Positions 27,372-49,764 are shown, counted from the first letter of the stretch. The stretch is DNA of 64,000 nt from Escherichia coli (GCF_044647545.1 NZ_CP172818.1); one strand, 5' to 3'. Numbers and translations: made by a program. The notes: generated from the letters alone by a model not told the origin.

Positions 27372-27734
27372 GGGGCTGATTCTGGATTCGACGGGATTTG
27401 CGAAACCCAAGGTGCATGCCGAGGGGCGGTTGGCCTCGTAAAAAGCCGCAAAAAATAGTCGCAAACGACGAAAACTACGCTTTAGCAGCTTAATAACCTG
27501 CTTAGAGCCCTCTCTCCCTAGCCTCCGCTCTTAGGACGGGGATCAAGAGAGGTCAAACCCAAAAGAGATCGCGTGGAAGCCCTGCCTGGGGTTGAAGCGT
27601 TAAAACTTAATCAGGCTAGTTTGTTAGTGGCGTGTCCGTCCGCAGCTGGCAAGCGAATGTAAAGACTGACTAAGCATGTAGTACCGAGGACGTAGGAATT
27701 TCGGACGCGGGTTCAACTCCCGCCAGCTCCACCA
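27372..27734 (+). ncRNA. ssrA: tmRNA (transfer-messenger RNA)
   Basis: Begins GGGGCTGATTCTGGATTCGACGGG, contains the tag-reading frame GCAAACGACGAAAACTACGCTTTAGCAGCTTAA (ANDENYALAA-stop), ends GGTTCAACTCCCGCCAGCTCCACCA. Confidence 0.97.
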
Positions 27735-27735
27735 A
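27712..27735. repeat. attL: 24-bp direct repeat TTCAACTCCCGCCAGCTCCACCAA (3' end of ssrA)
   Basis: Exact copy found at 49741-49764. Confidence 0.9.
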
Positions 27736-27937
27736 AATTCTCCATCGGTGATTACCAGAGTCATCCGATGAAGTCCTAAGAGCCCGCACGGCGCAAGCCC
27801 TGCGGGCTTTTTTGTGCCCTCAATTTGTCCCGCGAAGTCCGAAGAGAACTAATTAAATCCGAACCTTTTAGGCCCATTGATAGGCCCAACGAAAAGCTCT
27901 ATTGTTTACGTTGGGCCTAAACGCAGGGAGACTCCCC

Positions 27938-29179
27938 ATGGCAAGAAAAACCAAGCCGTTAACTGATACGGAAATCAAAGCCGCCAAACCTAAAGATGCC
28001 GATTACCAGCTTTATGACGGTGACGGGCTTACTCTGTTAATCAAGTCCAGTGGCAGTAAGCTTTGGCAATTCCGTTACTATCGGCCTTTGACCAAGCAGC
28101 GAACCAAACAGAGCTTCGGTGCCTATCCTGCCGTCTCGCTTTCTGATGCACGTAAACTCAGAGCCGAATCTAAAGTTTTATTGGCGAAAGACATTGATCC
28201 TCAGGAACATCAGAAAGAACAGGTGAGGAATTCTCAAGAGGCCAAAACCAATACCTTCTTGTTAGTTGCCGAGCGTTGGTGGAATGTGAAGAAAACCAGC
28301 GTAACAGAGGACTATGCCGACGATATCTGGCGCTCGCTTGAGAGAGATATTTTCCCGGCAATCGGTGATATCAGTATCACTGAGATTAAGGCTCATACTC
28401 TGGTTAAAGCAGTTCAGCCGGTTCAGGCCAGAGGTGCATTAGAGACTGTTCGCCGCCTTTGTCAGCGTATTAACGAAGTCATGATTTATGCGCAGAACAC
28501 AGGCCTGATTGATGCTGTTCCTAGTGTAAATATCGGAAAAGCTTTCGAGAAACCGCAAAAGAAAAACATGCCAAGCATCCGGCCGGATCAACTTCCGCAG
28601 CTAATGCACACCATGCGTACGGCAAGTATCAGCATGTCCACAAGATGCCTGTTCATGTGGCAACTTCTAACCATCACCCGCCCTGCCGAAGCTGCTGAGG
28701 CTCGATGGGATGAGATCGATTTCAATGCTAGCGAATGGAAAATTCCTGCAGCTCGAATGAAGATGAACCGGGACCATACGGTTCCACTATCTGATGGGGC
28801 TCTTGCTATTCTGGAAATGATGAAGCCTCTCAGTGGTGGCCGAGAATTTATCTTTCCTAGCCGTATCAAGCCCAACCAACCAATGAATAGCCAAACAGTG
28901 AATGCAGCACTCAAGCGTGCTGGCTTAGGAGGTGTACTTGTTTCACACGGCTTGCGTTCTATCGCCAGTACGGCACTCAATGAGGAAGGATTTCCACCTG
29001 ATGTCATTGAAGCAGCGCTTGCTCATGTAGACAAAAATGAGGTGCGTCGCGCTTATAACCGCAGTGATTATCTTGAGCAACGTCGTCCGATGATGCAATG
29101 GTGGGCTGATCTCGTAAAAGCAGCAGATAGTGGTAGCATCGTTTTAACTCATTTGAGCAAAATTCGTCTTGTCGGATAA
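27938..29179 (+). CDS. intA: P4-type tyrosine integrase, 413 aa
   Basis: ORF 27902-29179; start taken at MARKTKPLTDTEIKAAKP; C-terminal catalytic region (HGLRSIAST...AHVDKNEVRRAYNRSDYLEQRR). Confidence 0.93.
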   Translation: MARKTKPLTDTEIKAAKPKDADYQLYDGDGLTLLIKSSGSKLWQFRYYRPLTKQRTKQSFGAYPAVSLSDARKLRAESKVLLAKDIDPQEHQKEQVRNSQEAKTNTFLLVAERWWNVKKTSVTEDYADDIWRSLERDIFPAIGDISITEIKAHTLVKAVQPVQARGALETVRRLCQRINEVMIYAQNTGLIDAVPSVNIGKAFEKPQKKNMPSIRPDQLPQLMHTMRTASISMSTRCLFMWQLLTITRPAEAAEARWDEIDFNASEWKIPAARMKMNRDHTVPLSDGALAILEMMKPLSGGREFIFPSRIKPNQPMNSQTVNAALKRAGLGGVLVSHGLRSIASTALNEEGFPPDVIEAALAHVDKNEVRRAYNRSDYLEQRRPMMQWWADLVKAADSGSIVLTHLSKIRLVG

Positions 29180-29422
29180 AATATTTATCAGCCCAGCTCT
29201 CTGGGCTGATATTTCTAAAAGATCGCACTAAATAGCTACGCGGAATAGTGCTCTACTTTCGTTTAGCCCTTTCAGAGGTAAGACATTAGGGCAATTTCAC
29301 TGTATGACTGCGCAGTCATCGAGTCTGTGGGGTGTTGCTCCTTTTGCAACGTATCACTTGTCAATAAATAGAAAGTGTAGATGTATTAGGCGCAGCTATT
29401 TAGTCTATATGGCAAGTAGTAA

Positions 29423-30379
29423 TTATTTACTTCTTTTTTTTCTACGAACAGCGCTATCGAAAGCTTGTTTTACATCTTCATTTTTTAAAGACCATTGATT
29501 TAAAATAGTATCAACCAAAGCATCTTGACTCATTGTTGCTACACGATATTTTTTATTTTGATTATTTATCTCAAACTCTGACATTTGAATAAAATCCCAT
29601 AGCGGTTCGATAAGTTCATTAACTGCTACAACCTTATTTTTCCACCCATCATTCGGAACAGAGTCATTAATTAGCTCAACCAACTTCAGTTGAATGATAT
29701 GGTACACTTCCGCTTTGCTTTTGCCACCCTTCTTTCCTGCACTCCGCCTGACTTCTGATAATTTTTTTTGATTACAAACAGAGATGTTAAACCAAGTCAT
29801 ACCTATGCACTTATCAAATAACTCCGCAGCCCGATGAAATGCTTTAAAGGCAACGTTTTCATTTTCAGACATGATAGATTTTCCCCAGAAAAAAGAGATT
29901 GAGGCGAACATAAGGTGTGCCTTGAAAATGTCATTAATGGAAAATGGCTCGATAACAAGAGGTAAAAACGTTTCCTTGGTAAGGTTTGAACTTAGATTTT
30001 TCCAGCATTCTTGAGCTGGATCATATAATTCAGTGTATTCTTCCTTTATCTCCAGTTGCCCATTCACTGTATGGTGCCTTGTTTCCCATGGTACATCGCA
30101 GGAATATAACCTCACACGAGTACCTATTTTCTCAGAGCTCCAGAATTGCTCTCGCATTCTGCCTAGCTCAATCCGTATTTCCGGATGATCTTCCTCTAGA
30201 ACATCAGTATCCACCGCCCATTCGCATTCGGACATGTGATAGGCGAGATCACGTCGTTTTCTACAAATTTGTTCATAAAAATCATTCAGAGAAATCATAA
30301 AACCACCATAAATCAATGTATTAGAGGTTGTAAAAATTGTATTTTTGGTACATGGGTTTTTTGCCTTAAAGATACCCAT
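29423..30379 (-). CDS. yfjH: Hypothetical protein YfjH, 318 aa, AT-rich, no recognisable motif
   Basis: ORF 29423-30499; start taken at the Met (MGIFKAK...) that avoids overlap with alpA; divergent from alpA. Confidence 0.8.
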   Translation of the reverse strand: MGIFKAKNPCTKNTIFTTSNTLIYGGFMISLNDFYEQICRKRRDLAYHMSECEWAVDTDVLEEDHPEIRIELGRMREQFWSSEKIGTRVRLYSCDVPWETRHHTVNGQLEIKEEYTELYDPAQECWKNLSSNLTKETFLPLVIEPFSINDIFKAHLMFASISFFWGKSIMSENENVAFKAFHRAAELFDKCIGMTWFNISVCNQKKLSEVRRSAGKKGGKSKAEVYHIIQLKLVELINDSVPNDGWKNKVVAVNELIEPLWDFIQMSEFEINNQNKKYRVATMSQDALVDTILNQWSLKNEDVKQAFDSAVRRKKRSK

Positions 30380-30422
30380 TAATCTCTCTGCAACCAAAGT
30401 GAACCAATGAGAGGCAACAAGA

Positions 30423-30635
30423 ATGAACAATCGATCGGCCGTTAGAATACTACGGTTACCAGCGGTTATCCAAAAAACAGGTATGGCACGGGCCACCATC
30501 TATGACTGGTTGAACCCCAAATCACCACGATACGATGCCACCTTTCCCAAAAAGCGAATGCTCGGCGTGAAATCTGTCGGATGGATTGAGGCCGAGATTG
30601 ATGAGTGGTTATCACAACGCTGTAAACTTATTTGA
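30423..30635 (+). CDS. alpA: AlpA-family prophage transcriptional regulator (excisionase-like HTH), 70 aa
   Basis: ORF track; translation MNNRSAVRILRLPAVIQKTGMARATIYDWLN... Confidence 0.92.
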   Translation: MNNRSAVRILRLPAVIQKTGMARATIYDWLNPKSPRYDATFPKKRMLGVKSVGWIEAEIDEWLSQRCKLI

Positions 30636-30763
30636 GGGTGTTACATGAATTCATACTCAATTGCTGTCATCGGAGTGTAAACATCCTGCTATTTCCGCCA
30701 TTAATAGCGGAATAGCCATATTTGCTAAACAATTTCTTAATTTAATTAAATAAGAGGCATTGC

Positions 30764-32173
30764 ATGTTCAATGGTCGTCCTTTCCCTGTAGATGCATTTC
30801 CTAAAATTATCAGGAATGCAATTTATGAAGTGGAACAGCATACGCAGGCCCCTCAAGGTTTGATTGCTGCTTCTGCTCTTGGGGTAATTTCTCTTGCCTG
30901 TCAGAACCGGATTGATGTTTGCCGATTGAATAATCTACGTGGCCCGGTATCACTTTTCTTAATGACTCTGGCTGAATCAGGTGAACGTAAGAGTACGGTT
31001 GATAAACTGCTGATGAAGCCATTATATCAACTGGAAGAGGATTTATTTGAAAAATACACCCACGATCTTACCGCATGGAGAAATGATGAAGCAATTTTTA
31101 ATATTGAAAAAAAAGCACTGATGTCAAAACTTAAATCAGATATTCGACGTAACAAAGATCACTTGGCAACAAATGAAAGACTTAAAGAACTACTTACGAC
31201 AAACCCGAAAGCTCCAGTGAGATTCAAATTTTTATTTAACGATGCCACACCTGCAGCTATTAAAGCTCATCTCTGTGGGCACTGGCGATCAGTCGGCATC
31301 ATGTCTGATGAAGCTGGGATCATTTTTAATGGTTACACACTTAACGAGCTGCCGTTTATCAATAAGATGTGGGATGGTTCAATATTTACGGTGGAAAGGA
31401 AAAACGAGCCCGAGAAATTAATTAGAGATGCAAGAATAACACTGTCGCTGATGGTCCAGCCTAATGTTTTTAAGGGTTATATCGACAGGAAAGGAGATAT
31501 GGCAAAGGGGATTGGATTTTTTGCACGGTGCCTCATGTGCCAGCCTGCTTCAACACAAGGTAACAGAAAAATTTCCAACCCAATTTTTTCAAATGAACAT
31601 TTGCCGGTATTTCACCAACGTCTTATGGAAATTGTTAATGAGAGCATCATTAAAATTAATGAAAATAATCGCATCTGCCTCCGATTCTCTGCAGAAGCAG
31701 AAAGACATTGGATCGAATTCTACAACCAGGTCGAGTCAGAAATGAGAATGATTGGCCTTCTTTATGATTTTAAGGATTATGCTTCTAAAATGGCGGAGAA
31801 CATGGCGAGGCTTGCTGCCTTACTTCATTACTTCAGCGGTGATGGAGGCGATATATCTGTTACCGCAGTAAAAGCAGCAGTGGAGATAGTGGCTTGGTAT
31901 ATTGAAGAATACATCCGCTTGTTCTCTAAAAAAGAAGAGTTTTCTTTAGATGTTTCAGAAGCAGATGAGCTTTATTGTTGGATAAAAGATTACTGCACGC
32001 AAAAATTTTCTTCCTGCATCAAGAAAAATATTATCTTACAATTTGGGCCAAATAAATTTAGAAATCGTGACAAGGCAAATGAATTAATTAGAATCTTAAT
32101 TTCACAAAACAAAATATTTATATCTTCATGGGGTAAAACAAAAATAATAAACATAACTCATTGTGTTTTTTGA
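30764..32173 (+). CDS. yfjI: YfjI, DUF3987-type protein (primase-associated family in integrative elements), 469 aa
   Basis: ORF track; length and order match the K-12 island; family assignment by recollection. Confidence 0.85.
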   Translation: MFNGRPFPVDAFPKIIRNAIYEVEQHTQAPQGLIAASALGVISLACQNRIDVCRLNNLRGPVSLFLMTLAESGERKSTVDKLLMKPLYQLEEDLFEKYTHDLTAWRNDEAIFNIEKKALMSKLKSDIRRNKDHLATNERLKELLTTNPKAPVRFKFLFNDATPAAIKAHLCGHWRSVGIMSDEAGIIFNGYTLNELPFINKMWDGSIFTVERKNEPEKLIRDARITLSLMVQPNVFKGYIDRKGDMAKGIGFFARCLMCQPASTQGNRKISNPIFSNEHLPVFHQRLMEIVNESIIKINENNRICLRFSAEAERHWIEFYNQVESEMRMIGLLYDFKDYASKMAENMARLAALLHYFSGDGGDISVTAVKAAVEIVAWYIEEYIRLFSKKEEFSLDVSEADELYCWIKDYCTQKFSSCIKKNIILQFGPNKFRNRDKANELIRILISQNKIFISSWGKTKIINITHCVF

Positions 32174-32325
32174 TTTTAATGACAATCTAAAAGGACTTAA
32201 TTTAAGAGTAAAAACAAACTCTAAACCCAGTTCGGATAAAAGCTTGTCATCTTGATAGGTAATATATAGGTACATAGACACATCAGAACGATCACTTACT
32301 CCAATATCATTGGCCAGGATACTAT

Positions 32326-32952
32326 ATGACATACGATAGTGAATTCGGATCACATGTATCCCTATATCGGGATAGAATCAAACAGGTTATTGATGACTCC
32401 CTAAACGAACATCTTAACTCAATGATTCTACGTGTTGATCTGCATGACCCAATTGATACAGAAAATATGGATAACCCATTCTTTCAACCCAGGGTTGACT
32501 CTGGTGCTATATCTCGCTTTACCAGTGCGTTAAAAGCAAAGCTTAAACATGATAAGCATATTAAAACTCAACGGAAAGACTGGCCTGATAGTCGACATTC
32601 CACTTTACGTTACGCATGGGTCAGAGAATATACCAAAAATAGAAAGCGGCATTACCATTTGATACTGTGTTTCAATCAGGATGCTTATTATCATTTAGGT
32701 GATTACGACTTAAACCGTAACACGTTACGTACAATGATAACGACAGCTTGGTACAGTGCACTTGGCATCCCTATAGATAGCTCGGGGAAGTTAGTTAATT
32801 ACCCGCCAAATGGCAAATACCTTCTCAATCGTAAAAGGGACAACTTTGAGCAGACTTATAGCGATTTGATGAATAGGGTGGATTACATGACCAAAGTAAG
32901 GACTAAAATAGTCGGTGACGGAGACCGTAATTTCGGCTGCAGTCGCGGGTAA
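32326..32952 (+). CDS. yfjJ: YfjJ, YagK/YfjJ family (inovirus Gp2-like replication-initiator family), 208 aa
   Basis: ORF track; family assignment by recollection. Confidence 0.8.
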   Translation: MTYDSEFGSHVSLYRDRIKQVIDDSLNEHLNSMILRVDLHDPIDTENMDNPFFQPRVDSGAISRFTSALKAKLKHDKHIKTQRKDWPDSRHSTLRYAWVREYTKNRKRHYHLILCFNQDAYYHLGDYDLNRNTLRTMITTAWYSALGIPIDSSGKLVNYPPNGKYLLNRKRDNFEQTYSDLMNRVDYMTKVRTKIVGDGDRNFGCSRG

Positions 32953-33129
32953 TTTATTTTTTACAACAATGGCCTTTCTTATGGCTGGAAAGGCCTGATT
33001 TGTTTGTATTAAGATATCGGTAATCTTTTGATGGTTGGAAGCCCGTCCTGGTAGACGACCTAGCCTACCGAAGATGTGAGTTATTCAAAAATGTCGCTTT
33101 CCCGCGTTCCGTAGACAAACGTACCTAAA

Positions 33130-35319
33130 TCAATGTCGTCTAATACCGAGCGCGCGCCTGATAAACATCTGATCAACGTACCCAATCGATCTACTCCAAA
33201 TGTCCTGAGTATCCCGAAGATACTGGCTCAACTCATCCACATCAGCCTCGTCGGAAAATTCCAGCAAGTCTACCAGTCGGTGTAACGTCTGAATGGGAAT
33301 GCCAATCTCTTCTAAGGCATTGACACCTGGTGGTAGATGGAAACTTTCGAACGCCAATTTGACATGTGTGTAATCGACTTTGCTGCGTATACCACGCTTT
33401 ACAGCGTGGTGTTTAACTACATCCTCCATCAAGCTGAGCACCTTAGGTAGGGTATAGCCGAAGGTATTGGTTATGAGCTTCAAATCATTGTTGAGGGCAA
33501 TGGAAAGAGTACGTTTCTCCCCTTCAGAAATCCACTGTCGTGCATAATCGATCTGATTTTTCAGATATTCCGAATAACTTTCAGCACTTAAATAGCCGGC
33601 AAGTTTTGCGATCATGACATCCGTAGGCTTAACAGGGACCCCATTGCGACTGAACGTATGGGGAACCAGTCTGGCAATGATCTTTGCAAAGGTCTTGAGG
33701 AAGTTTGTCGCGGGAGTCCAGTGAAACACTAACGAGGAAAATTCGTTATCGTCCATCATCTCGAACATGCTTTGCAGCATTTCGAACTGCTCGACACGGA
33801 AGTACGAATGCTTCTTCACAAGGTCGATGGAAACACGGTCGTTTATGAAAACCTCATCAAAGCGATCCTGTGAAAACTCGGACAAGTGGTCTGGTTGAAC
33901 GCTGGCTAACAGGTTGATTGGGGTATCAATGCCCTGAATACCGAGCGGAATATCCACCTCTTGATTGAGATTGTCTTCCGGGATTTCCTCCAGGCAAAAG
34001 ATTTTGCCGACGAAGTGAACGCCCATGCGCCCGGCGCGACCTTTGATGTTCCCATGGGTGAATTTGTCAATGCTGCGAGTTCCATCGCGGTTGTCGTAGA
34101 TCACAACGTTCTTAGCGATAGTGTTGACTCCTTCAATGATCGTGGAGGTGCAGAGCAAAAAGCGCAGTTTTCCAGCATTGAATTGGTCGGCAGTGTATTG
34201 CTGCAGTGCCCTCGGTAGCGCGCCAAAATGCAAGCCAATACCGTTTCTAAGGGCGACTGTGTAATCCCAGTCGGCATCGAACTCTTCGCTGACCCAGTCG
34301 ACATGGGGATTCTCAGTCGGAGTGCCATGCCCAAGCCTGATCAGCTCGCGCGCCACCAGGCCCGCAACAGTTGGTGACTTGCAATAAATGATCGTTGCGT
34401 CGACACATGCGTGCGCGATTTCCCCCAGCGCTTTGAGCTTGGCTTTGTCGTCATTCGCTTTGATGCCGAACGTCTTAACATCTAGCGCGACTGTATTGAA
34501 GTCGGTAGAAACGAAAGTATGCGGATATCCAAGTTTTTCGAGACCGCGAATGCTGTTAACGAACGGTCCCGTCAGGTAAAACTGCCTGGAGACCTTAAGC
34601 AGTTTGCTTAACGCAATGTTGAGCTCGATGACTCGTTCGTCTTGATGATCAATGTCCCCGCTTTTCAGTTGTCGGAACGCCAACTTGTAAAACTCGTCAA
34701 TGACGAAGAGGTCAATGTCGACGATGTCGTCACGCTCGTTCACTCGCTCCTGAGTTAACACATAAACAGCCTGATCGGAATGGCACACTTGGGAACTGTG
34801 GTGGATGATCTGATATCGGTCACCGAATCGCTCTTGCAGTCGGCGACGGGTTTCGTCGGCAAGAGCCACGGTTGGAACAACCAGAACAAGCCGTTTCAAA
34901 GTTCCCATGCCGAGCAATGAATCGACGATTGCACTTTTGCCCATGCTTGTAGGTGCACTCAGCACCACGTTTTGACCAGACTTGAGCAGATCGAATATGT
35001 GGAACTGCATTGAGTGGAAAACATAACCATCCGAGAATGGCGTCCGGTATAGCTCAAGCACCCTCAGGTCATCCGGTGTCAGGCTGGTGAACTCCTTTTT
35101 GAGATACGGGAACAAACCTGATTTTCTCACCATATTTTTCAAAATTGTGGTGTGCTCGGAAAACCGCTCGCGCGAATCGAGAGCTCGCACGATCAAGTCC
35201 CGTCCCAAGTCATACGAAACAGGGTTAGACAACAGCTTGTTAACCGCAAACAGATAATTGAACGATGAGAAGTCCTCACCCTGCAGGCTATGTTTCGCCT
35301 GTTCATAGATCTCTGTCAT
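33130..35319 (-). CDS. yfjK: SF2 DEAD/DEAH-box helicase YfjK, 729 aa
   Basis: ORF track; Walker A APTSMGKS, motif II VIDEFY, motif VI GRAGRMG visible in the translation; start overlaps yfjL stop (ATGA). Confidence 0.92.
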   Translation of the reverse strand: MTEIYEQAKHSLQGEDFSSFNYLFAVNKLLSNPVSYDLGRDLIVRALDSRERFSEHTTILKNMVRKSGLFPYLKKEFTSLTPDDLRVLELYRTPFSDGYVFHSMQFHIFDLLKSGQNVVLSAPTSMGKSAIVDSLLGMGTLKRLVLVVPTVALADETRRRLQERFGDRYQIIHHSSQVCHSDQAVYVLTQERVNERDDIVDIDLFVIDEFYKLAFRQLKSGDIDHQDERVIELNIALSKLLKVSRQFYLTGPFVNSIRGLEKLGYPHTFVSTDFNTVALDVKTFGIKANDDKAKLKALGEIAHACVDATIIYCKSPTVAGLVARELIRLGHGTPTENPHVDWVSEEFDADWDYTVALRNGIGLHFGALPRALQQYTADQFNAGKLRFLLCTSTIIEGVNTIAKNVVIYDNRDGTRSIDKFTHGNIKGRAGRMGVHFVGKIFCLEEIPEDNLNQEVDIPLGIQGIDTPINLLASVQPDHLSEFSQDRFDEVFINDRVSIDLVKKHSYFRVEQFEMLQSMFEMMDDNEFSSLVFHWTPATNFLKTFAKIIARLVPHTFSRNGVPVKPTDVMIAKLAGYLSAESYSEYLKNQIDYARQWISEGEKRTLSIALNNDLKLITNTFGYTLPKVLSLMEDVVKHHAVKRGIRSKVDYTHVKLAFESFHLPPGVNALEEIGIPIQTLHRLVDLLEFSDEADVDELSQYLRDTQDIWSRSIGYVDQMFIRRALGIRRH

Positions 35320-40352: not shown

Positions 40353-40380
40353 GTGTTTAATTCTGCCCTATTATTCTCCG

Positions 40381-40412: not shown

Positions 40413-40443
40413 ATTTGTTTTACCCATACTGAGGAGTCTGCTT

Positions 40444-41263
40444 ATGACCCGTCTGGCTTCGCGCTTTGGCGCTGCAAACCAGATACGCCGTGACCGTCCG
40501 CTGACACATGAAGAACTGATACGCCATGTACCCAGTATTTTTGGGGAAGACCGGCACATCCCGCAGTGAACGGTATGCGTACATTCCCACCATTACCGTC
40601 CTGGAAAATCTGCAGCGGGAAGGCTTTCAGCCGTTCTTCGCCTGCCAGACCCGTGTGCGCGACCCGGGCCGCCGGGGATACACAAAACACATGCTGCGTC
40701 TGCGGCGGGCCGGAGAGATAAACGGAGAACATGTCCCTGAAATTATTCTGCTCAACTCTCATGACGGTACCTCCAGCTACCAGATGCTGCCGGGTTACTT
40801 CAGGTTCGTCTGCCAGAACGGGTGCGTCTGTGGCCAGTCTCTGGGGGAAGTGCGTGTTCCACACCGGGGAAATGTAGTGGAGAAAGTTATCGAAGGGGCT
40901 TACGAGGTGGTGGGCGTGTTTGACCGGATAGAGGAGAAGCGTGATGCCATGCAGTCGCTGGTCCTGCCGCCACCGGCACGCCAGGCGCTGGCACAGGCGG
41001 CACTGACTTACCGTTATGGTGACGAACATCAGCCCGTCACCACCGCCGACATTCTGACGCCGCGACGCCGGGAGGATTACGGTAAGGACCTGTGGAGCGC
41101 ATATCAGACCATCCAGGAGAATATGCTGAAAGGCGGGATTTCCGGTCGCAGTGCCAGAGGAAAACGTATCCATACCCGGGCCATTCACAGCATTGATACC
41201 GACATTAAGCTCAATCGCGCATTGTGGGTGATGGCAGAAACACTGCTCACGCAACTGCAGTAG
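40444..41263 (+). pseudogene. yfjQ: yfjQ (DUF932 family), apparently disrupted: 41-codon N-terminal frame ends at 40567, remaining 245 codons are in the +1 frame from 40526
   Basis: ATG 40444 with GAGGAG RBS encodes MTRLASRFGAANQIRRDRPLTHEELIRHVPSIFGEDRHIPQ-stop; the long ORF 40526-41263 is in a different frame; the total span (820 nt) is not a multiple of 3. Confidence 0.6.
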
Positions 41264-41479
41264 ACGTTTCATGTTGCCACGTTGTTAATATCGGACACCA
41301 CCTGTCCGCATCGCTATGTGCTCGTGTGCCTCAATCCCCCGGTTATAGCTTTTAACCCCCGTTACATCTGGCTTTTGCAGAAATAAAAAATAGTTTCTGC
41401 GTTGTCCATACCCTGTCCGCCCCCCTCTTTAAAGTAATCACATCATTTTCAGTCAGTTAACTTTCCTGGAGAATCTCTC

Positions 41480-42181
41480 ATGACACAGGCAGAACGCCGC
41501 CATGACCGGCTGGCTGTCAGGCTGTCACTGATAATCAGCCGTCTGGTTGCGGGTGAAACGTTGAGCGTGCGCAAACTGGCGGCTGAGTTTGGCGTGTCAG
41601 TGCGCACGCTGCGGCGTGATTTTCGTGAACGACTGATGTATCTGGACCTGGAGTATCAGTCCGGATACTGCCGCTTACGCACTGCTGGCAGTGAGATGCA
41701 GATGGTGCCCGACGTGCTTATCTTTGCCCACCGCAGCGGGCTGGCCGGGCTTTTTCCCGGCCTTGACCGCCGTCTGGTGAATGCACTGCTGATGTGCGAT
41801 GAGTCTCCCTGCGTGATAGCACCAGCCAATCCGGTTCCTTCGCCTTCAGGAGCATTGTCTTTCTGGAGACTGATTCAGGCCATTACCGGGCGCAGGCGGG
41901 TGACGCTGATTGCAGAGGGGCGACGCTGTGAGCGCCTAGCTCCCTGCCGGTTACTCATCCACCAGCAGACCTGGTATCTGGTGGCTGAACACGAAGGGCA
42001 TATCGCCGTATTCACACTTGATGAAATCCATCTGATTCAGCCTTTGCAGGAGACTTTTCGCCGCAATGACAGTCTGTGTCGCCTGGTTGAAGACCCGGTC
42101 TTCATTCAGGCCTTACCCCATTTTCGCTTTATCCAGCATTCACTGCTTACGTTTGTTCCGGCCGACAGCCCACCGGAATAG
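41480..42181 (+). CDS. yfjR: YfjR, putative transcriptional regulator with N-terminal HTH (DeoR-like), 233 aa
   Basis: ORF track; translation [48 protein letters not shown]... Confidence 0.85.
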
Positions 42182-42221
42182 CGCAGGCGTTGTTATCAAC
42201 CCGGCAACATGGAGGAGCCCA

Positions 42222-42458
42222 GTGCCCGTTATTGCCATTATCGCCATTGTTATCATCGTCATCATTCTGAACAAAACCGGAGTGTCCGACAGCCTCACGG
42301 CCCTGACACTTGCAACCGTTGCCGCACTACTGACGGGAGGTGGTGCAGCCGGTGCTGCCAGTGTCGCGCTGACGCCGTTCGTCGGCGTGCCGGTGGGTAT
42401 TTTTGTGGGAATTTATGTCTTTGCCAAAGTGGTTCGTCTGATTTCAGGGAAAAAATAA
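42222..42458 (+). CDS. ypjK: YpjK, small hydrophobic membrane protein (about 78 aa)
   Basis: GTG at 42222 six nt after GGAGG; translation VPVIAIIAIVIIVIILNK...; stop overlaps yfjS ATG by 1 nt. Confidence 0.65.
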   Translation: MPVIAIIAIVIIVIILNKTGVSDSLTALTLATVAALLTGGGAAGAASVALTPFVGVPVGIFVGIYVFAKVVRLISGKK

Positions 42459-42901
42459 TGAAACGTAAAACACTACCTCTGCTGGCGCTGGTTGCCACCT
42501 CTCTGTTTCTGAGCGCCTGCGATGACAGGAGTGATGACCTCAAAGCTATCAGTAAATTTAAGGACCTCACGCCCCCGCGCTTCAGCGATGTGGTCAGCCG
42601 TCAGGATGATGTCAGCGAAGAATGGTCACAGGTTGGCTTCTCATCCGGTCTCACCCTGCAGGTCTTACGTACCCGTGAGTCGCCCGATGGTTGCGAGGGT
42701 GGCAGTTACTACTATCTGGTAGATATGGAGGAGAAAACCGTCCAGCCGCTGATGAATGCGCTTTGTATTGCCGACAATATCAAACTGGAATACCACGAAG
42801 TTACGGACCCGTATACGAAAGAAAAATACTTCGAATATTCCCATGACGGCAAACTGATGGGACGGCTGCTGATACCGTCAAACCCTGATAACCGGGAATA
42901 A
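42458..42901 (+). CDS. yfjS: Lipoprotein YfjS, 147 aa
   Basis: In-frame Met within ORF 42209-42901; signal peptide MKRKTLPLLALVATSLFLSAC with lipobox. Confidence 0.8.
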   Translation: MKRKTLPLLALVATSLFLSACDDRSDDLKAISKFKDLTPPRFSDVVSRQDDVSEEWSQVGFSSGLTLQVLRTRESPDGCEGGSYYYLVDMEEKTVQPLMNALCIADNIKLEYHEVTDPYTKEKYFEYSHDGKLMGRLLIPSNPDNRE

Positions 42902-42924
42902 AAACAACGAGAAAGGAGACATAA

Positions 42925-43392
42925 ATGAAAATACGTTCACTAAGCCGGTTTGTACTGGCAAGTACAATGTTCGCCAGCTTTACAGCCTCTGCGGTCCCCG
43001 GACTCTGGCAACAGGGGTACGGTCAGGGCAATGCGGAATACAGTGTGACGGATGCCAGCGGAAAGATGTTTACCATCAACTGCACGGGAAATCCGGACCA
43101 GAACGGTATTTACCAGCACTCGGTTTTTCTGATCCTCGCCGGGGATAAAACGGTCAGCTCGCATGATGACAGTACCGGCATCACAGTGGTGATGGACCAT
43201 AAGCAATATGCCATTCCCTCAACCCTTGGCTGGCGTAACGGAGATAATGCCTGGTTCAGCTTCATCATGGATATCCGTAAGGCCCGGCAGTTCGACGTCT
43301 ACGTCAATGACCAGAAAGTTGGATCGTTTAACCCTGATGTTCGGAATGCACAAAAGGTCCTGCCAACATTAGCGGACTGCACTAACGACTGA
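42925..43392 (+). CDS. yfjT: Secreted protein YfjT, 155 aa
   Basis: ORF track; cleavable signal peptide MKIRSLSRFVLASTMFASFTASA; AGGAGA RBS. Confidence 0.8.
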   Translation: MKIRSLSRFVLASTMFASFTASAVPGLWQQGYGQGNAEYSVTDASGKMFTINCTGNPDQNGIYQHSVFLILAGDKTVSSHDDSTGITVVMDHKQYAIPSTLGWRNGDNAWFSFIMDIRKARQFDVYVNDQKVGSFNPDVRNAQKVLPTLADCTND

Positions 43393-43784
43393 CGGCTGCG
43401 CCTTCCCTACCATAACAACCCTGATTGCCTCCGGCGGTCGGGGGTTTCTTTTTTCTCCTTAATCTCCAGAGGTAGGCCACGTACTTTCGAACGATGAGCG
43501 CAGTGGTCAGTTTTTTTCAGATATATTTATCTTTTTTTGGCTGTAAGCTCCGCTGTGAGCGCAGGCTGTGTGAAAACTCCTGATCACTTCTTGGTCTAAG
43601 CGATGGTTTCATATGATCAACCATTCTTGATAAACCCATGCGACGAACTGACTTTTTCATTAAAATTAGAAATATACGAATGAATACTGCGGATACCGAC
43701 ATGGCCAATCACATTCAAGGACAAGGCAGGCACCAGGTGACATTACTCCCTGATGCACTGGATGATTTTGTCACTGAAGATAAC

Positions 43785-43931
43785 TTAAGTAAGTTTAATC
43801 AGTTCATCACGGGTCGGTGGCATATCGAGATAATTAATTATTGTCGGTTCGTTGCCGTTGTTATGAAGCATCTCCAGCGTGTTGCGTGAGGTGCCACAGG
43901 CCGGGTTGTGATAGATGGTAATGTTGCTCAT
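43785..43931 (-). pseudogene. yfjU: Arsenate reductase ArsC N-terminal fragment (48 codons)
   Basis: Minus-strand translation MSNITIYHNPACGTSRNTLEMLHNNGNEPTIINYLDMPPTRDELIKLT-stop, the ArsC N-terminus with the catalytic Cys, truncated. Confidence 0.8.
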
Positions 43932-43943
43932 ATCAGTATCTAA

Positions 43944-44935
43944 TTACAAAGTGACAGAGAGCCGCCACGCCAGCGCGGCCAGAGTGACAAACAGCACCGG
44001 CACAGTCATGACAATGCCGGTACGGAAGTAATATCCCCAAGTGATTGTCATATTTTTCTGGGCAAGCACATGCAGCCACAGCAGAGTTGCCAGACTGCCA
44101 ATCGGGGTGATTTTCGGGCCTAAATCACAGCCAATCACATTGGCATAAATCATTGCCTCTTTGACGACGCCAGTCGCCGTACTCCCGTCAATCGACAGCG
44201 CACCAATCAGCACCGTCGGCATATTGTTCATCACTGATGAGAGAAATGCCGTCAAGAAGCCGGTGCCGAACGTCGCTGCCCATAACCCCTTGTCTGCCAG
44301 CAGATTCAGCACGCCAGACAGGTACTCCGTGAACCCTGCATTGCGCAGGCCATAGACCACGATGTACATGCCCAGTGAGAAAATAACGATCTGCCATGGC
44401 GCACCGCGCAGGACTTTTCCGGTGTTGATCGAATGACCTCTTTTCGCCACCACAAACAGCACTGCTGCGCCAGCGGCCGCTATCGCACTGACCAGGATTC
44501 CCTGCGGCTCCAGAAAGAAGAAACCGACAAGCAGCAATAACAGGACAATCCAGCCCGCCCTGAAGGTTGCCAGATCCTTGATCGCACTGGCAGGCGTCTT
44601 CAGCAGCGAAACTTAATACGTTGCCGGAATAACTCTGCGAAAGAAGAGATACAGCATAATCAGCGTGGCCGCAATCGCTGCCGCATCCACGGAGATCATA
44701 ACGGAGGCGTACTGCGCAAAGCTCAGACCGAAGAAGTCCGCCGAGACGATATTCACCAGGTTAGAAACAATGAGCGGCAGGCTGGCCGTATCTGCAATAA
44801 ATCCTGCAGCCATGACAAAGGCCAGTGTCGTGCCCTGGCTGAACCCAGTGCGATCAGCATCGCAATCACAATCGGCGTCAGGATCAGCGCGGCGCCGTCA
44901 TTGGCAAACAACGCATCAACAGCGGCACCGAGCAA
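43944..44935 (-). pseudogene. yfjV: Arsenite efflux pump ArsB remnant, frameshifted and 5'-truncated
   Basis: ORF 43944-44537 encodes an ArsB-like C-terminal membrane region; ORFs 44613-44813 and 44753-44935 in other frames carry ArsB-like N-terminal segments. Confidence 0.75.
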
Positions 44936-45094
44936 GACTTTCCAGGTGAACAGCGCTCTAGGTAGGAACTTTGTCGTTGATAGAGTCTTCAGCCATCAAC
45001 ACTGTATCGAGTAATGAAATTGGTTGCTAGAAAGTCGATGATTTGTTGCGTATGATTAAAAATCAACCTTAAAGGCTTTATACATGGATTTGCT

Positions 45095-46798
45095 ATGGCT
45101 TTTGTATCAGAAAGAGAAATTGTAAGAAAGATATTTAGCAAAAAAATTGACTTTACGATCTTGGCATTTTTCTATATTTCCTCTATTTTTTTTCTTCTTT
45201 GTAGTGGCGTTCTCTTTCAATATTTTACCGCTGCCTTCACAAAAGGTAATTGTTATGAATGCTCAATGAAACTTGATTACATAAAACAATTTTATTTTTC
45301 ACTGGAAACCGCATGGTACCTCATATCTGCTGTTGCAGTATTTATTGCATCTGTTTTTATACAGCATAGAATTAAAGCTTATTTAACATTATTAGCTATT
45401 ACATGGATTGTACTAACAATAACAGATGTGGCGTTAATACACGCCTTAGACAATATAGCCATGAATAATATTTTGTTAAATATACTATATAATCTTTTTG
45501 GGGCGATTTTATTGTCACTGTTTATGTGTTTATCAAATTCCCTCCTTTTCCACCTTAATAAGATAAAACATATTCCAATGATTTTATCGGCAATGATTCC
45601 ATTAGTTTCCGCAATAATAATAGCCATACTCATAACCGCTGTTATATATTTATTGTTTGCCCGGCAGGCGGTAGAGATTGAGATGGATATATCTGAAGGT
45701 TCAGACATCGCATATGTAGGTGTAAAAGATAATGAGGAATCATTTGGGTTTTTAAATGATAAAAAAACAGACACACCAACGTATCTGGATGTAATCAAAA
45801 ATGGTAGTTTGATATATAATGATACACAGGGTTTAAGTGGTGCTGATATTTATATTGTCTCCGGTTGTTATGCCCTTCCAGATTTACTTCGCAATGTACC
45901 GCTTGATGCTAAAAAATCTTTTCTGAATGTAAAAAAGCTAGAAATCACACAGAAACTTCCAATGATGGGGTTCATACAAGGTGAATCCGCTGATGTGATG
46001 CCTAAAGCAGCATCCAGGTTAAGTTTGAGCAAGCAAGATGATAAATTTATGCTAGCCTCAAGTGTTACTGACTCTCAAATAAAATTTAAATCAAACAATG
46101 CACAATTGATGGTTGCTTTCGCATTTATGCCAATAACAACGAATGGTATTTTACATGATTATACATACGATATAATAATAAATGATAAAAAATATAAAAT
46201 TGAAAATCATGTTGCACCTCTATCTAGGCTTGATAAAAATAAGAAGATGAAGTGTGAATACCAGCAAATATCGGATTTAACAAATACGTATAACATTAAT
46301 GCAAATTACTTAACGGGTTTTTTACTTGTCCTAAAACCAGATGATATTATTAATTACAACAATAGCCCTTCCGTACTACTCAAGACTGATTTTGCGTTCT
46401 ATAAAAAAACATACCAGAAGCTTGATAAAATATATGATGACATAAGCAATGGAAAATTATCTTCACTGAGAGCAACAGGTATCTCCCAGTTTAGTATCAA
46501 CGGGAAACATTTGTCGTTAAGGCCAGAATCGGAGATTATTATTTCTGAAGGGAGTTTGTATGGACTAGTTAATAAAAGCAAAAAAATCAAAATATATGGC
46601 ACAGCAGATCTTGTTTTTGTTGATAACAAGATAATGAACCTTCGTAAAATAACTTATTTGCAATCTAAGCTAGAAATTTTTGGTTCTTCTATTATGGATA
46701 TATTAAAGTATATATTTGGTTTAGGTCTGCTAGCAATTTCTATAAAATTCATTCATTCTTACTTTAAGAATGATGTGAATGAAAATTTATTCTTGTAA
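45095..46798 (+). CDS. yfjW: YfjW, 567 aa, N-terminal polytopic membrane domain plus large C-terminal domain of unknown function; strongly AT-rich
   Basis: ORF track; about five hydrophobic helices in the first ~190 residues; A/T-rich codon usage unlike the core genome. Confidence 0.85.
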   Translation: MAFVSEREIVRKIFSKKIDFTILAFFYISSIFFLLCSGVLFQYFTAAFTKGNCYECSMKLDYIKQFYFSLETAWYLISAVAVFIASVFIQHRIKAYLTLLAITWIVLTITDVALIHALDNIAMNNILLNILYNLFGAILLSLFMCLSNSLLFHLNKIKHIPMILSAMIPLVSAIIIAILITAVIYLLFARQAVEIEMDISEGSDIAYVGVKDNEESFGFLNDKKTDTPTYLDVIKNGSLIYNDTQGLSGADIYIVSGCYALPDLLRNVPLDAKKSFLNVKKLEITQKLPMMGFIQGESADVMPKAASRLSLSKQDDKFMLASSVTDSQIKFKSNNAQLMVAFAFMPITTNGILHDYTYDIIINDKKYKIENHVAPLSRLDKNKKMKCEYQQISDLTNTYNINANYLTGFLLVLKPDDIINYNNSPSVLLKTDFAFYKKTYQKLDKIYDDISNGKLSSLRATGISQFSINGKHLSLRPESEIIISEGSLYGLVNKSKKIKIYGTADLVFVDNKIMNLRKITYLQSKLEIFGSSIMDILKYIFGLGLLAISIKFIHSYFKNDVNENLFL

Positions 46799-46805
46799 CG
46801 CATTT

Positions 46806-46826
46806 GGCTCCAATTGGAGCCTTTTT
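46806..46826 (+). terminator. Rho-independent terminator after yfjW
   Basis: GGCTCCAATTGGAGCC hairpin followed by TTTTT. Confidence 0.8.
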
Positions 46827-47227
46827 ATGACTATTTATTAAAATATCCTAAGTTAAGCCTGTTTTTAAAGCAGGCTTGAGCGTGAAGCGGACACTCATAC
46901 CTGCTTTAAAGTGGCGTTTTTGTCGTTACCCATACCTATATTTTCTGTTGTTTAACTGCCAGAACTGAGCGGTTGAAAAGCCAGAAATATGCCGAGCCAG
47001 CGGCATGGAAGCGCCAGCAGCTGTTGAATGGAGTACTGTAGGCAAATGGTGCCGTAACCGGCTTTCGTACTGAAAGGTTCTGTCTATCCCATCCCTTCTC
47101 TTGTATCTAACATTTAGTTGTGAATAGCTACTGTAAATGCCCCTACAAAATGAACCATTATTTTTAGAGGGCGTCTGGCACTCCAACTTCCGCTTTTGGC
47201 ACAGAACGGCCTATCAGCAATATAAAA

Positions 47228-47345
47228 GCATTCAGATATATATCATTTCTACAAACATACCCGATTAACGGCAGAATCTCAGGATTCTGCCGCTTTTTTA
47301 TTATTTTTCAGGGGAGTAGTAATGAGCAACTCTGAAGGTTGGTAG
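47228..47345 (+). other. Remnant of a second yfjP-like GTPase gene: conserved 5' leader with hairpin plus a truncated 7-codon ORF
   Basis: 47228-47321 is about 80 percent identical to the yfjP leader 39405-39488, including the CGGCAGAA...TTCTGCCG hairpin and the RBS; ATG 47322 encodes MSNSEGW-stop. Confidence 0.7.
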
Positions 47346-47695
47346 TCATTTTAGCAAACGCTTTCTGGTCTGCCGCAGTGGGCATCGGCTGATTGCGTAG
47401 CAGGGCCACTGGTATCTGCCGGTATCACCGACATTAACATTGAAGACGACCAGGGCATTCACGTCCGCCTGATAGTTCGTGATGCCGAAGGTCGGATGGT
47501 TGGCGGGCATGGAACTTTGAACCGGACGCCGGTGAAGGTTTTAACCGCTATATCCACAGGTCAGGCATCCGCACCGACACCTTCCCCCGCTGACTCCGAA
47601 TCATTTACCAGCAACATTTCACCTTCCCAAACGCGCTTTATTACCTCATACGCCAGCCATCGCCGCTGGCGTTTTTTATTCACGGAGACATACCC

Positions 47696-48154
47696 ATGAC
47701 AACACAGACACAGTACGACCTCGTACCCGCTAACGGATCCGAATTTGAGTTGAGCGTAACGCAGGTACCCGATGAACAGCATATCCGCTTCTGGCCGCAG
47801 CACTTTGGCACCATCCCGCAGTGGATAACGCTGGAACCGCGCATTTTCGCCTGGATGGACCGCTTCTGTGATGAGTACTGCGGGGGTATCTGGTCCTTTT
47901 ACACGCTCAGCAATGGCGGAGCGTTTATGGCTCCTGATGCTGACGGTGACGATAAATGGCATTTGCTCAACGGCATGAATGGCAATGGTGCGGAAATGAG
48001 CGCGGAAGCCGCAGGTATCGCTGTCTGCCTGATTGAATATAGCCATCACGCCTGCCTCACCGAATGCGATGCCATGACGGAGCACTATTACCGCCTGCGG
48101 GATTACGCTCTGCAGCACCCTGAATCCAGCGCCATTATGCGCATTATTGATTAA
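47696..48154 (+). CDS. yfjX: YfjX, antirestriction protein (ArdB/KlcA family), 152 aa
   Basis: ORF track; translation MTTQTQYDLVPANGSEFELSVTQVPDEQHIRFWPQHFGTIPQWITLEPRIFAWMDRFCDEY... Confidence 0.88.
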   Translation: MTTQTQYDLVPANGSEFELSVTQVPDEQHIRFWPQHFGTIPQWITLEPRIFAWMDRFCDEYCGGIWSFYTLSNGGAFMAPDADGDDKWHLLNGMNGNGAEMSAEAAGIAVCLIEYSHHACLTECDAMTEHYYRLRDYALQHPESSAIMRIID

Positions 48155-48162
48155 GGATACTC

Positions 48163-48645
48163 ATGATGGAACAGTCACTCATCCCACAGACACCGGTACT
48201 TCCACTGACCGCACAACGCACGGTAAAACGCGCCTTAACGCTGCTTGACCGACACCTGCGCGAAACAGGCGTGGCATTCACCTCCACTCAGGCTGCTCGT
48301 GACTGGCTGAAGCTGAAAATGGCGGGGCTGGAGCGTGAAGAATTTATGATGCTGTATCTGAACCAGCAGAACCAGTTGATTGCCCACGAAACCCTGTTTG
48401 CCGGTTCTATTAGCAGTACCGAGGTACATCCCCGTGAGGTGGTCAAACGCGCCCTGTATTTCAATGCAGCAGCAGTGATACTGGCGCATAACCACCCCTC
48501 CGGCGACACTACTCCCAGCCAGGCAGATAAGACTATAACGCAGCGTCTGGTGCAGGCGCTTCAGCTCGTTGATATCCGTGTCCCTGACCATCTGATTGTT
48601 GGTGGCAGGCAAATCTATTCGTTCGCAGAACACGGTCTGCTTTGA
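48163..48645 (+). CDS. yfjY: YfjY, RadC-like JAB/MPN domain protein, 160 aa
   Basis: ORF track; JAMM-like motif HNHPSGDTTPSQAD. Confidence 0.88.
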   Translation: MMEQSLIPQTPVLPLTAQRTVKRALTLLDRHLRETGVAFTSTQAARDWLKLKMAGLEREEFMMLYLNQQNQLIAHETLFAGSISSTEVHPREVVKRALYFNAAAVILAHNHPSGDTTPSQADKTITQRLVQALQLVDIRVPDHLIVGGRQIYSFAEHGLL

Positions 48646-48653
48646 GGTATTAC

Positions 48654-48854
48654 ATGAGAATTATCAGTAAACGCCGGGCAATGACGATATACCGCCAGCA
48701 TCCTGAGTCCCGAATCTTTCGCTACTGCACCGGAAAATATCAGTGGCACGGTAGCGTCTGTCATTACACCGGCAGGGATGTTCCGGATATCACAGGAGTC
48801 CTGGCTGTGTACGCCGAACGCCGCAGGACCGCAGCGGACCGTATGCTTGACTGA
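48654..48854 (+). CDS. ypjJ: YpjJ, DUF987 protein (YeeT paralog), 66 aa
   Basis: ORF 48642-48854; ATG at 48654; translation MRIISKRRAMTIYRQHPESRIFRYCTGKYQWHG... Confidence 0.75.
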   Translation: MRIISKRRAMTIYRQHPESRIFRYCTGKYQWHGSVCHYTGRDVPDITGVLAVYAERRRTAADRMLD

Positions 48855-48891
48855 TGAGTATCACCCTGAACTGACAATAAAGAGGTTATGA

Positions 48892-49209
48892 ATGAGCAAC
48901 ACCACATGGGGCCTGCAGCGAGATATCACGCCGCGCCTGGGAGCACGTCTGGTGCAGGAGGGCAACCAGCTGCACTATCTGGCTGACCGGGCCAGTATCA
49001 CCGGTAAGTTTAGTGACGCCGAATGTCCTAAGCTGGATGTGGTATTTCCACATTTTATCAGCCAGATAGAGTCGATGCTGACCACTGGTGAACTGAATCC
49101 CCGCCATGCCCAATGCGTCACCCTGTACCACAACGGTTTTACCTGCGAAGCCGATACTCTTGGTAGTTGCGGCTACGTATACATCGCTGTTTACCCCACT
49201 CAACGCTAA
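48892..49209 (+). CDS. yfjZ: YfjZ, CbeA-family type IV antitoxin, 105 aa
   Basis: ORF track; translation [58 protein letters not shown]... Confidence 0.88.
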
Positions 49210-49229
49210 CTAATTTCACGAGAGCAAGC

Positions 49230-49559
49230 ATGAACACTCTACCTGCTACAATTTCGCAGGCGGCGAAGCCCTGCCTGTCGCCAGTGGCTGTCTGGCAAAT
49301 GCTACTGACACGCCTGCTGGAACAACACTATGGCCTGACACTGAACGACACGCCGTTCAGTGATGAAACTGTTATTAAGGAACATATCGATGCTGGTATC
49401 ACTCTGGCCGATGCAGTCAATTTTCTGGTGGAAAAGTACGAACTGGTACGTATCGATCACAGAGGATTTTCGTGGCAACAACAGTCTCCATATATTTCCG
49501 TAGTAGATATTCTGCGAGCAAGGCGCTCTACCGGCTTGCTAAAAACTAATGTGAAATAA
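49230..49559 (+). CDS. ypjF: YpjF, CbtA-family type IV toxin (cytoskeleton-targeting), 109 aa
   Basis: In-frame ATG 49230 within ORF 49167-49559; translation [57 protein letters not shown]... Confidence 0.85.
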
Positions 49560-49740
49560 ACGCTTAAATACAGAGCAGACTGAAGGAAAGCAAAATGCTA
49601 ATCTCATAGACGAAGAGACTCCCGCTGTAACCTCCCCTCCCCCGAAAAAACCTGACATTTTCTTTTAGGACCAACAATGGGACCAAAATGAAAATTGAAC
49701 TGAAGATTACAATCAATTTAACAACAAGTTACACAACCAA

Positions 49741-49764
49741 TTCAACTCCCGCCAGCTCCACCAA
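49741..49764. repeat. attR: 24-bp direct repeat identical to the ssrA 3' end
   Basis: TTCAACTCCCGCCAGCTCCACCAA, exact match to 27712-27735. Confidence 0.9.

Follow-up and report, generated by a model that had tools for sequence, protein, structure and literature searches.

CP4-57 is a cryptic prophage of Escherichia coli K-12 that resides at ssrA, the gene for transfer-messenger RNA (tmRNA), and a P4-family integrase together with AlpA is also found beside ssrA in CP4So of Shewanella oneidensis, VPI, Stit11X and other islands (PMC10107115), which likewise duplicate the tmRNA 3′ end at the far end and are excised under the control of AlpA (PMC5148205). Excision of CP4-57 driven by its integrase IntA and by AlpA is known from published experiments in K-12, where it is induced by AlpA overproduction (PMC10107115, PMC3105296), and CP4So, a related element, has AlpA as its excisionase (PMC5148205). 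In K-12, excision leaves ssrA with a one-base change, deltaT357 (PMC3105296), by which trans-translation is lost and ribosome rescue passes to ArfA (PMC10107115); since the right-hand attachment site (attR) of K-12 lacks T357, published work treats CP4-57 excision as a tmRNA-killing, ArfA-inducing switch. In the other ssrA islands attR also lacks the T357 equivalent or more, and excision inactivates tmRNA (PMC10107115 Table 1). Here we describe a 22,029-bp segment at ssrA in a 64,000-nt stretch of E. coli DNA (NZ_CP172818.1, hereafter the window), which is CP4-57 itself, inserted precisely into a chromosome of the ST648 type and carrying an attR copy that is intact, unlike those of K-12 and of the other ssrA islands. 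CP4-57 is already described, as are its ssrA attachment site, its excision by IntA and AlpA and its defence cargo, and the discovery value is small; the useful part is comparative, namely that CP4-57 occurs in an unrelated chromosome with its attR intact.

The element is bounded by the exact 24-bp direct repeat TTCAACTCCCGCCAGCTCCACCAA, present in two copies on the + strand, at 27712-27735 (attL core) and at 49741-49764 (attR core). No third copy of this 24-mer was found in the window at up to three mismatches (0 expected in shuffled sequences), so that within the window a recurrence at many loci, which the first-pass annotation of this DNA had named as evidence against its proposal of an ssrA-borne island, was not encountered. 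The bases adjoining the two copies differ on both sides (g/a on the left, a/t on the right), and the block of identity is therefore exactly 24 bp. The integration target ssrA (27372-27734, +) was identified by ARAGORN (tag peptide ANDENYALAA), by Rfam (RF00023, 292.8 bits) and by the RefSeq annotation of the homologous K-12 locus, all of which end the gene at 27734; the repeat thus consists of the last 23 nt of ssrA plus one downstream base and not, as first stated, of the last 24 nt of the gene, although its exact recurrence at both positions was correctly recognized. The ssrA part of the repeat comprises the T-loop TTCAACT, the 3′ T-stem strand CCCGC, the 3′ acceptor strand CAGCTCC and ACCA. 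Across the island the G+C content ranges from 0.40 to 0.56, compared with ~0.50 in the flanks, and an Rfam scan of the island returned nothing besides the tmRNA.

Megablast searches of 5,426 complete E. coli genomes with 27300-49900 gave full-length matches (query coverage 100%) at 98.9% identity in K-12 strains and at 99.6% identity in strain BS-04. Base-by-base comparison with K-12 gave no differences over 27736-40478, 41243-43571 and 43790-49744, and the departures from K-12 are limited to a tract in yfjQ, a 218-bp patch, the attR core and the chromosomal flanks. The genes run in the order intA, yfjH, alpA, yfjI, yfjJ, abpB, abpA, yfjM, rnlA, rnlB, yfjP, yfjQ, yfjR, ypjK, yfjS, yfjT, two pseudogenes, yfjW, a DUF905 pseudogene, yfjX/lfgA, yfjY/lfgB, ypjJ, yfjZ and ypjF, with ypjA outside the element. 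The 22-kb element is therefore the already known CP4-57, and the earlier assignment to an ssrA-targeting element of the CP4-57 type, right about the ssrA integration and the 3′-end duplication, was too cautious only in the word type. The window copy shares with that of K-12 the ssrA site, the gene order from intA to ypjF, and an ssrA trailer and terminator inside the element; it differs in its perfect attR, where K-12 has TTCAGACTCCGCCAGC-CCACCAA, in another, frameshifted allele of yfjQ, in 16 substitutions over 43572-43789, and in the host chromosome, which is ST648-type and not K-12.

Insertion at ssrA was examined with an empty-site construct of 1201 nt, in which 27135-27735 is joined to 49765-50364 as the expected product of precise excision. 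The construct was found uninterrupted at 100.0% identity in all 25 genomes among the matches listed, and at least 80% of it lay in one place in 1385 of the 5426 genomes. In strain ST648, ypjA is annotated directly after ssrA, and window positions 25635-27735 and 49741-51864 are 100% identical to that strain; indeed, over its full 14.2 kb the right flank matches ST648-lineage genomes at 100.0% identity, and these are the same records as those with the empty site. Flanks of the K-12 type, in contrast, differ from the window at 26 positions in ~1.9 kb on the left and are ~95% identical on the right. Host-specific single-nucleotide polymorphisms (SNPs) can be followed up to 27691 on the left side and are found again from 49796 on the right side, which confines the switch from host to element to at most 44 bp from the left core (27691-27735) and 51 bp from the right core (49745-49795). 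Site-specific integration is expected to give a switch so close to both cores, a few tens of bases away, and the comparison with other strains proposed in the first-pass annotation, in which ssrA is joined to the ypjA flank, thus came out as anticipated, at 100% identity. These results demonstrate precise insertion at ssrA, and the locus shows the traits of islands that target tRNA and tmRNA genes: an arm-binding tyrosine integrase beside one attachment site, a repeat that duplicates the 3′ part of ssrA and leaves the gene intact, and a precise empty site in related genomes.

The genes for movement of the element are preserved. intA (27938-29179, +) encodes a P4-family tyrosine integrase of 413 aa with the three Pfam domains Arm-DNA-bind_3, Phage_int_M and Phage_integrase (PF13356, PF22022 and PF00589; phrog_1 integrase, E 3e-72), and the protein is identical to that of K-12 and 36% identical to P4 Int (E 5e-77), in agreement with its earlier naming as a P4-type integrase; its start lies 203 bp after the left repeat, close to the roughly 200 bp noted before. 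alpA (30423-30635, +; PF05930, E 7e-24; PHROG "excisionase and transcriptional regulator") encodes a Vis/Xis-like regulator and excision factor with 34% identity to P4 ORF88 (E 1e-9), and follows intA as had been described, with yfjH on the minus strand in between. Both intA and alpA are intact and identical to the K-12 genes. Between the left core and intA, an ssrA 3′ trailer and an intrinsic terminator are carried by the element (27736-27815, +; terminator scan; identical to K-12), with a stem-loop at 27795-27809 that is followed by a T-run. Since the terminator (27795-27815) is inside the element, the resident element would terminate ssrA within itself; Kirby et al. (1994) reportedly located the tmRNA precursor 3′ end inside the prophage, in agreement with this position. 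In BS-04 (L002 1936-2000, equivalent to window 27735-27800) a different trailer of ~60 nt directly follows ssrA and leads to the same terminator, so that the ssrA-proximal end of the element is itself mosaic. In the empty-site genomes the first hairpin with a T-run lies ~130 nt downstream of ssrA, at the end of the convergent ypjA (window 49889-49915), where the consensus terminator scan gave no call on the + strand.

Candidate arm-type sites for Int were recognized by motif search on either side of the presumed attP core, with TAGGCCCAT and TAGGCCCAA on the + strand and TAGGCCCAA on the − strand at 27869-27919, and TAGGACCAA and TGGGACCAA on the + strand at 49666-49686 in the other attP arm. 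The motif T[AG]GG[CA]CCAA has five matches in the 64 kb, four of them within 200 bp of the attachment cores (27881 on the + strand, 27911 on the − strand, 49666 and 49678 on the + strand), with a near-copy at 27869; as the motif was defined after inspecting the attachment regions, this clustering is indicative only. The copies at 27869-27919 overlap a promoter-like site for intA (27877-27905, promoter scan). Those on the attR side do not vary among elements with otherwise only ~90% identical arms, strain 0H26 with its single substitution excepted. P4 has annotated 12-bp arm repeats on both sides of its attP core, and by this parallel, together with the arm-binding domain of IntA, the copies of the motif are candidate arm sites to which IntA may bind.

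The attR core of the window is a perfect copy (24/24) of the ssrA 3′ end. The exact recurrence first reported is thus true, but a perfect repeat is atypical for CP4-57, whose attR is degenerate in K-12: there and in BS-04 the core reads TTCAGACTCCGCCAGC-CCACCAA, in which the T-loop region shows four mismatches (or an insertion/deletion pair) and the T357 equivalent is lost. A degenerate attR, in which TTCAGACTCCGCCAG is followed by a shortened remnant, usually without T357, was found in K-12, BS-04, five divergent E. coli elements and 32 loci of other genera. In the five natural E. coli isolates with these divergent relatives, TTCAGACTCCGCCAG is followed either by C-CCACCAA or by a 5-nt deletion. 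The scan of species-representative genomes indicated that the CCAATTCAGACTCCGCCAG end is conserved at the 32 loci, which come from ~22 enterobacterial genera, and that it is followed by cccacca (the deltaT form) at 19 of them and by larger losses in the rest; an intact CTCCACCA after the element end was found at none of the 32. As in the window, a CbtA/YpjF-like gene ends ~180 bp before the core at 19 of these loci, while an IntA homologue lies 120-320 bp after the core at seven, which points to tandem arrays at ssrA. Within E. coli, the right end is carried by 406 complete genomes, ~357 of them with the K-12-type end and nearly all of these laboratory K-12 derivatives, and two (BS-01 and HS-01, from one study) match the window at 100%; a metagenome scan for the perfect junction returned a single contig, of a divergent element. 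In the left part of the core, GACT in place of ACTC travels with the element. Collectively, members of the CP4-57 family as a rule have a damaged displaced ssrA end, and the attR lesion expected of "regulatory switch" prophages (deltaT357 or larger) is absent from the window. One of the two matching genomes, BS-01, has a CP4-57 (L003 10865-11686, 18119-19286) that combines the perfect attR with a fine-scale mosaic yfjQ and replaced alleles of yfjX, yfjY and ypjJ; the Indonesian isolate group to which BS-01 belongs represents either heavily recombined CP4-57 variants or assemblies of mixed quality.

These observations make it very probable that the 22,029-bp CP4-57 was inserted by its own IntA into the ssrA 3′ end of an ST648-lineage chromosome, at a site that is empty in the sequenced relatives. 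The attP of the circular element would carry a copy of the ssrA 3′ end followed by the ssrA trailer and terminator, and its recombination with the chromosomal attB would yield a functional ssrA at attL, with 3′ end, trailer and terminator supplied by the element, while the original ssrA 3′ end would be displaced by 22 kb to attR. The reaction would be reversed by IntA with AlpA, which raises intA expression and is an excision factor in the family. In K-12, excision transfers the damaged attR copy to ssrA and inactivates tmRNA. In the window, both cores are identical over 24 bp, and excision at any crossover position would regenerate the wild-type ssrA-ypjA junction of the ST648 genomes; judged from the two cores, excision in this strain is thus expected to be scarless and to restore ssrA to wild type. 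The predicted products are an attB consisting of wild-type ssrA, with T357 kept, followed by tcatgattgg..., and an attP of the form ...CCAATTCAACTCCCGCCAGCTCCACCAAaattctcc.

The position of the crossover can be narrowed by comparison with K-12. Between the T-loop differences and T357, the only stretch common to ssrA and the K-12 attR is CCGCCAGC; given the deltaT357 product of K-12 excision, we infer that IntA probably exchanges strands within this CCGCCAGC block. A crossover in the T-loop (TTCAACT) was also considered, which would directly explain the perfect repeat, but it is at odds with the single-base change published for K-12 excision and was rejected. The perfect attR could go back to a variant attP; alternatively, the TTCA microhomology may have served for a rare exchange that created an attP with a perfect core.

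Several points weigh against insertion by IntA as proposed here. The combination of element and host is unique in the genomes searched, where no complete genome of the ST648 type carries the element, and the left flanks were K-12-type in all eight sampled contigs that contain exact IntA, so that this look-up yielded no second ST648-type carrier among the eight. With a K-12-type attP, a simple crossover by IntA at the place deduced from the K-12 experiments would produce TTCAGACTCC... in attR and not a perfect copy, so that one extra event or a different attP allele is needed. Finally, the strict consensus of integration host factor, WATCAANNNNTTR, was not found in either attachment arm.

Among the alternatives, the one that survives best is that the island is real K-12 DNA whose ST648 setting and perfect attR are an artefact or a laboratory product, for instance a mixed assembly of ST648 and K-12 in which host reads were laid over the attR core, or a transfer during laboratory matings; we consider it unlikely, and it now concerns mainly the attR core. 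It draws on the absence of any difference from laboratory K-12 over ~21 kb outside the two patches, on the fact that full-length CP4-57 carriers in RefSeq are nearly all K-12 derivatives and that the element is found in no other ST648 genome, on an attR "conversion" that starts exactly where homology to the host ssrA begins (TTCA), and on the occurrence of the perfect allele otherwise only in two assemblies of a single study and one metagenome contig. The two patches, however, speak for natural DNA. In yfjQ (DUF932; 40444-41263, +; sequence comparison), the tract 40479-41241 is a clean other allele with ~70% identity to K-12 yfjQ, and 40471-41247 is 99.5% identical to a DUF932 paralogue that is widespread in E. 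coli, including ST648-type genomes, where it is located close to sbmC/dacD. The window gene is frameshifted by the loss of 2 nt at 40557; exact-sequence look-ups of the two frameshifted products retrieved no record. BS-04 has a similar yfjQ tract, whose right boundary is the same as in the window. Alleles of ~70% identity are too divergent for mis-mapping of reads, and the other blocks of 70-72% identity are untouched. The second patch (43572-43789, 218 bp) differs from K-12 by 16 substitutions without insertions or deletions, and coincides with a 226-bp left-end fragment of an IS1182-family insertion sequence (IS) that is 99.6% identical to the intact IS copy of the host, against 93.8% for K-12; the substitutions at 43786 and 43789 are private, lie outside the IS homology and match neither K-12 nor the host. 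Overwriting of a K-12-derived insert by host reads at all three deviations was accordingly rejected, for yfjQ because of its divergence and the untouched 70-72% blocks (yfjX to ypjF), and for the 43.6-kb patch because of its private substitutions outside the homology. Furthermore, the flanks are 100.0% host-type where K-12 is ~95% identical with many indels, which argues for a de novo contig and not a reference-guided consensus. The yfjQ tract and the 43.6-kb patch look like natural allelic mosaicism.

CP4-57 is usually regarded as a K-12 fossil. Beyond the insertion itself, the perfect attR may mark a real "unlocked" allele of CP4-57, which entered the ST648 chromosome by very recent site-specific integration, kept attR intact and can excise without a scar, so that the rescue switch would be a lock specific to particular alleles; we advance this only tentatively, at somewhat less than an even chance. 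If it is true, the tmRNA-inactivating switch of K-12 is not a property of the element itself, the damaged attR in all 38 other family members examined, none of them with the T, would be the outcome of selection for locks that make losing the island costly, and the window strain would be a natural control for this idea. Intact-attR islands could be lost without cost, while damaged-attR islands penalise their loss through tmRNA inactivation and so could persist, and the family as sampled may owe its damaged ends to such survivorship. If the sequence is genuine, excision in the window strain should not flip the tmRNA/ArfA switch; its excisants are predicted to retain tmRNA tagging, to leave ArfA uninduced and to survive loss of arfA, the opposite of K-12 deltaCP4-57 (PMC10107115). 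In either case the survey of attR across ~22 enterobacterial genera bears on the stability of tmRNA-gene islands.

That the repeats merely mark an old insertion whose ability to excise has been lost is very unlikely. The several pseudogenes of the element and the very low excision frequencies reported for K-12 (PMC3105296) would suit such an immobile fossil, but intA and alpA are identical to the K-12 genes that drive excision (PMC10107115), the repeats are perfect, and the closest relatives of the host are without the element, which points to recent gain. Import from a K-12-like donor by homologous recombination, through transduction or conjugation and with the repeats as inherited relics, fits the homologous exchange indicated by mosaic patches in this element family, but is hardly credible, because both crossovers would have to fall within ~44 bp and ~51 bp of the attachment cores and no K-12-type SNPs are present in the flanks beyond them.

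Insertion of CP4-57 by IntA does not make the element a phage satellite. The first-pass annotation had called it cryptic or satellite-like, of which cryptic is borne out and satellite-like is not. P4 (X51522) was compared with the window by tblastn with all 13 annotated P4 proteins (E <= 0.01) and by blastn of the P4 DNA. Only Int and ORF88 found homologues in the window; Sid, Delta, Psu, Epsilon, cI and Alpha gave no tblastn match there at this threshold, blastn detected no nucleotide similarity to P4, and the P2/P4 cos sequence GGCGAGGCGGGGAAAGCAC was absent at up to three mismatches. No protein of the element falls into the PHROG head, tail or lysis category, and none into head and packaging, as expected from the earlier remark that capsid, tail and lysis genes are lacking. 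The P4-family Int, the AlpA/Vis homologue, the helicase-like YfjI and the presence of the element in two unrelated chromosomal backgrounds, which indicates horizontal movement, would be in keeping with a P4-type helper-dependent satellite that can still hijack a P2-like helper for packaging, but with two of 13 P4 proteins matched, no cos and no similarity to P4 DNA this is scarcely tenable. What the two have in common is the integrase family, a Vis/AlpA-type regulator, int beside attP and arm repeats on either side of the core; they differ in that sid, delta, psu, epsilon, cI and cos are missing from the window element, in which no similarity to alpha was found, and in the arm repeat itself, which is TTGGGGGCATAT in P4 and T[AG]GG[CA]CCAA in the window. 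P4 also has another target, a tRNA-Leu gene, unlike the ssrA of the window element.

The remaining genes of CP4-57 begin with yfjH (29423-30379, −), the RefSeq "protein YfjH", which matches only an unannotated PHROG and had no Pfam or PADLOC match. It is followed by yfjI (30764-32173, +; DUF3987, helicase-like; Pfam and PHROG) and yfjJ (32326-32952, +; YagK_YfjJ_C, with a weak Rep ORF2/G2P-like match). YfjI matches the PHROG "DNA helicase" at E 5e-100 and weakly a "DNA primase", and has no tblastn similarity to P4 alpha; yfjI-yfjJ (30764-32952) may be what is left of a replication module that has no relation to P4 alpha. On the minus strand, abpB/yfjK (33130-35319) matches HamB in PADLOC (E 4e-220) and DEAD and Helicase_C in Pfam, and abpA/yfjL (35316-36932), a DUF1837 nuclease, matches HamA (PADLOC, E 3e-266) and the Pfam domains Cap4_nuclease and HamA. 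The two genes adjoin with a 4-nt overlap, in the adjacency of HamA and HamB that characterizes Hachiman, and by these profile matches AbpA/AbpB is classified as a Hachiman anti-phage system. Downstream lie yfjM (37292-37555, −), an 87-aa fragment of the C-terminal domain of a GmrSD-type restriction endonuclease (partial match to PF07510; RefSeq), and the toxin-antitoxin pair rnlA (37697-38770, +) and rnlB (38763-39134, +), identical to K-12 and annotated as RnlA/RnlB in RefSeq. RnlAB has an anti-T4 role. PADLOC gave no match for RnlA/RnlB, YfjI, YfjJ or YfjW.

The conserved right-hand module starts with yfjP (39489-40352, +), of a GTPase family (PF01926, Dynamin_N; RefSeq). After yfjQ come yfjR (WYL domain; 41480-42181), ypjK (42222-42458), yfjS (42458-42901) and yfjT (42925-43392), all on the + strand, annotated in RefSeq and identical to K-12. 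A decayed region on the minus strand consists of the IS1182-family left-end fragment (43559-43784, by IS homology), a glutaredoxin/ArsC-like fragment (43779-43931) and an arsenic-transporter pseudogene (43944-44959; RefSeq pseudogene flags). It is followed by yfjW (45095-46798, +; RefSeq), for whose product no match was found in Pfam, PHROG or PADLOC. The right-end module (47433-49559, + strand throughout) is made up of the DUF905 pseudogene (47433-47593), the antirestriction gene yfjX/lfgA (47696-48154; RefSeq, PHROG anti-restriction family), the RadC/JAB gene yfjY/lfgB (48163-48645; PHROG DNA-repair family), ypjJ (DUF987; 48654-48854; RefSeq), and the antitoxin gene yfjZ (48892-49209) with the CbtA-type toxin gene ypjF (49230-49559), annotated in RefSeq as a CbtA/CbeA-type toxin-antitoxin pair. 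The description of the cargo as a mosaic of defence-type modules and decayed genes thus stands for the Hachiman genes yfjLK, for rnlAB, the toxin-antitoxin pair and the pseudogenes, but not for yfjH, which lacks a Pfam or PADLOC match, nor for the antirestriction gene, as YfjX belongs to counter-defence. The right-hand third of the element, from yfjP to ypjF, is the module DUF932 - antirestriction - RadC - DUF987 - CbeA/CbtA of CP4-6 / CP4-44-type islands, of which an ST648-type genome has a paralogous copy near sbmC/dacD; these module copies are at other chromosomal sites and are ~70-72% identical to the window at the DNA level.

Outside CP4-57, a stretch of low G+C (0.36-0.41) lies to the right of ypjA (window 54000-60000) around a tRNA gene at 57622-57697 (−), called tRNA-Met (CAT) by ARAGORN and tRNA-Ile in the RefSeq annotation of the BS-01 homologue, with a recombinase fragment and DUF5507 pseudogenes nearby; this region is perhaps a further old island. 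A tRNA-Glu (TTC) gene close to the left end of the window (1357-1432, −) may belong to a ribosomal RNA operon.

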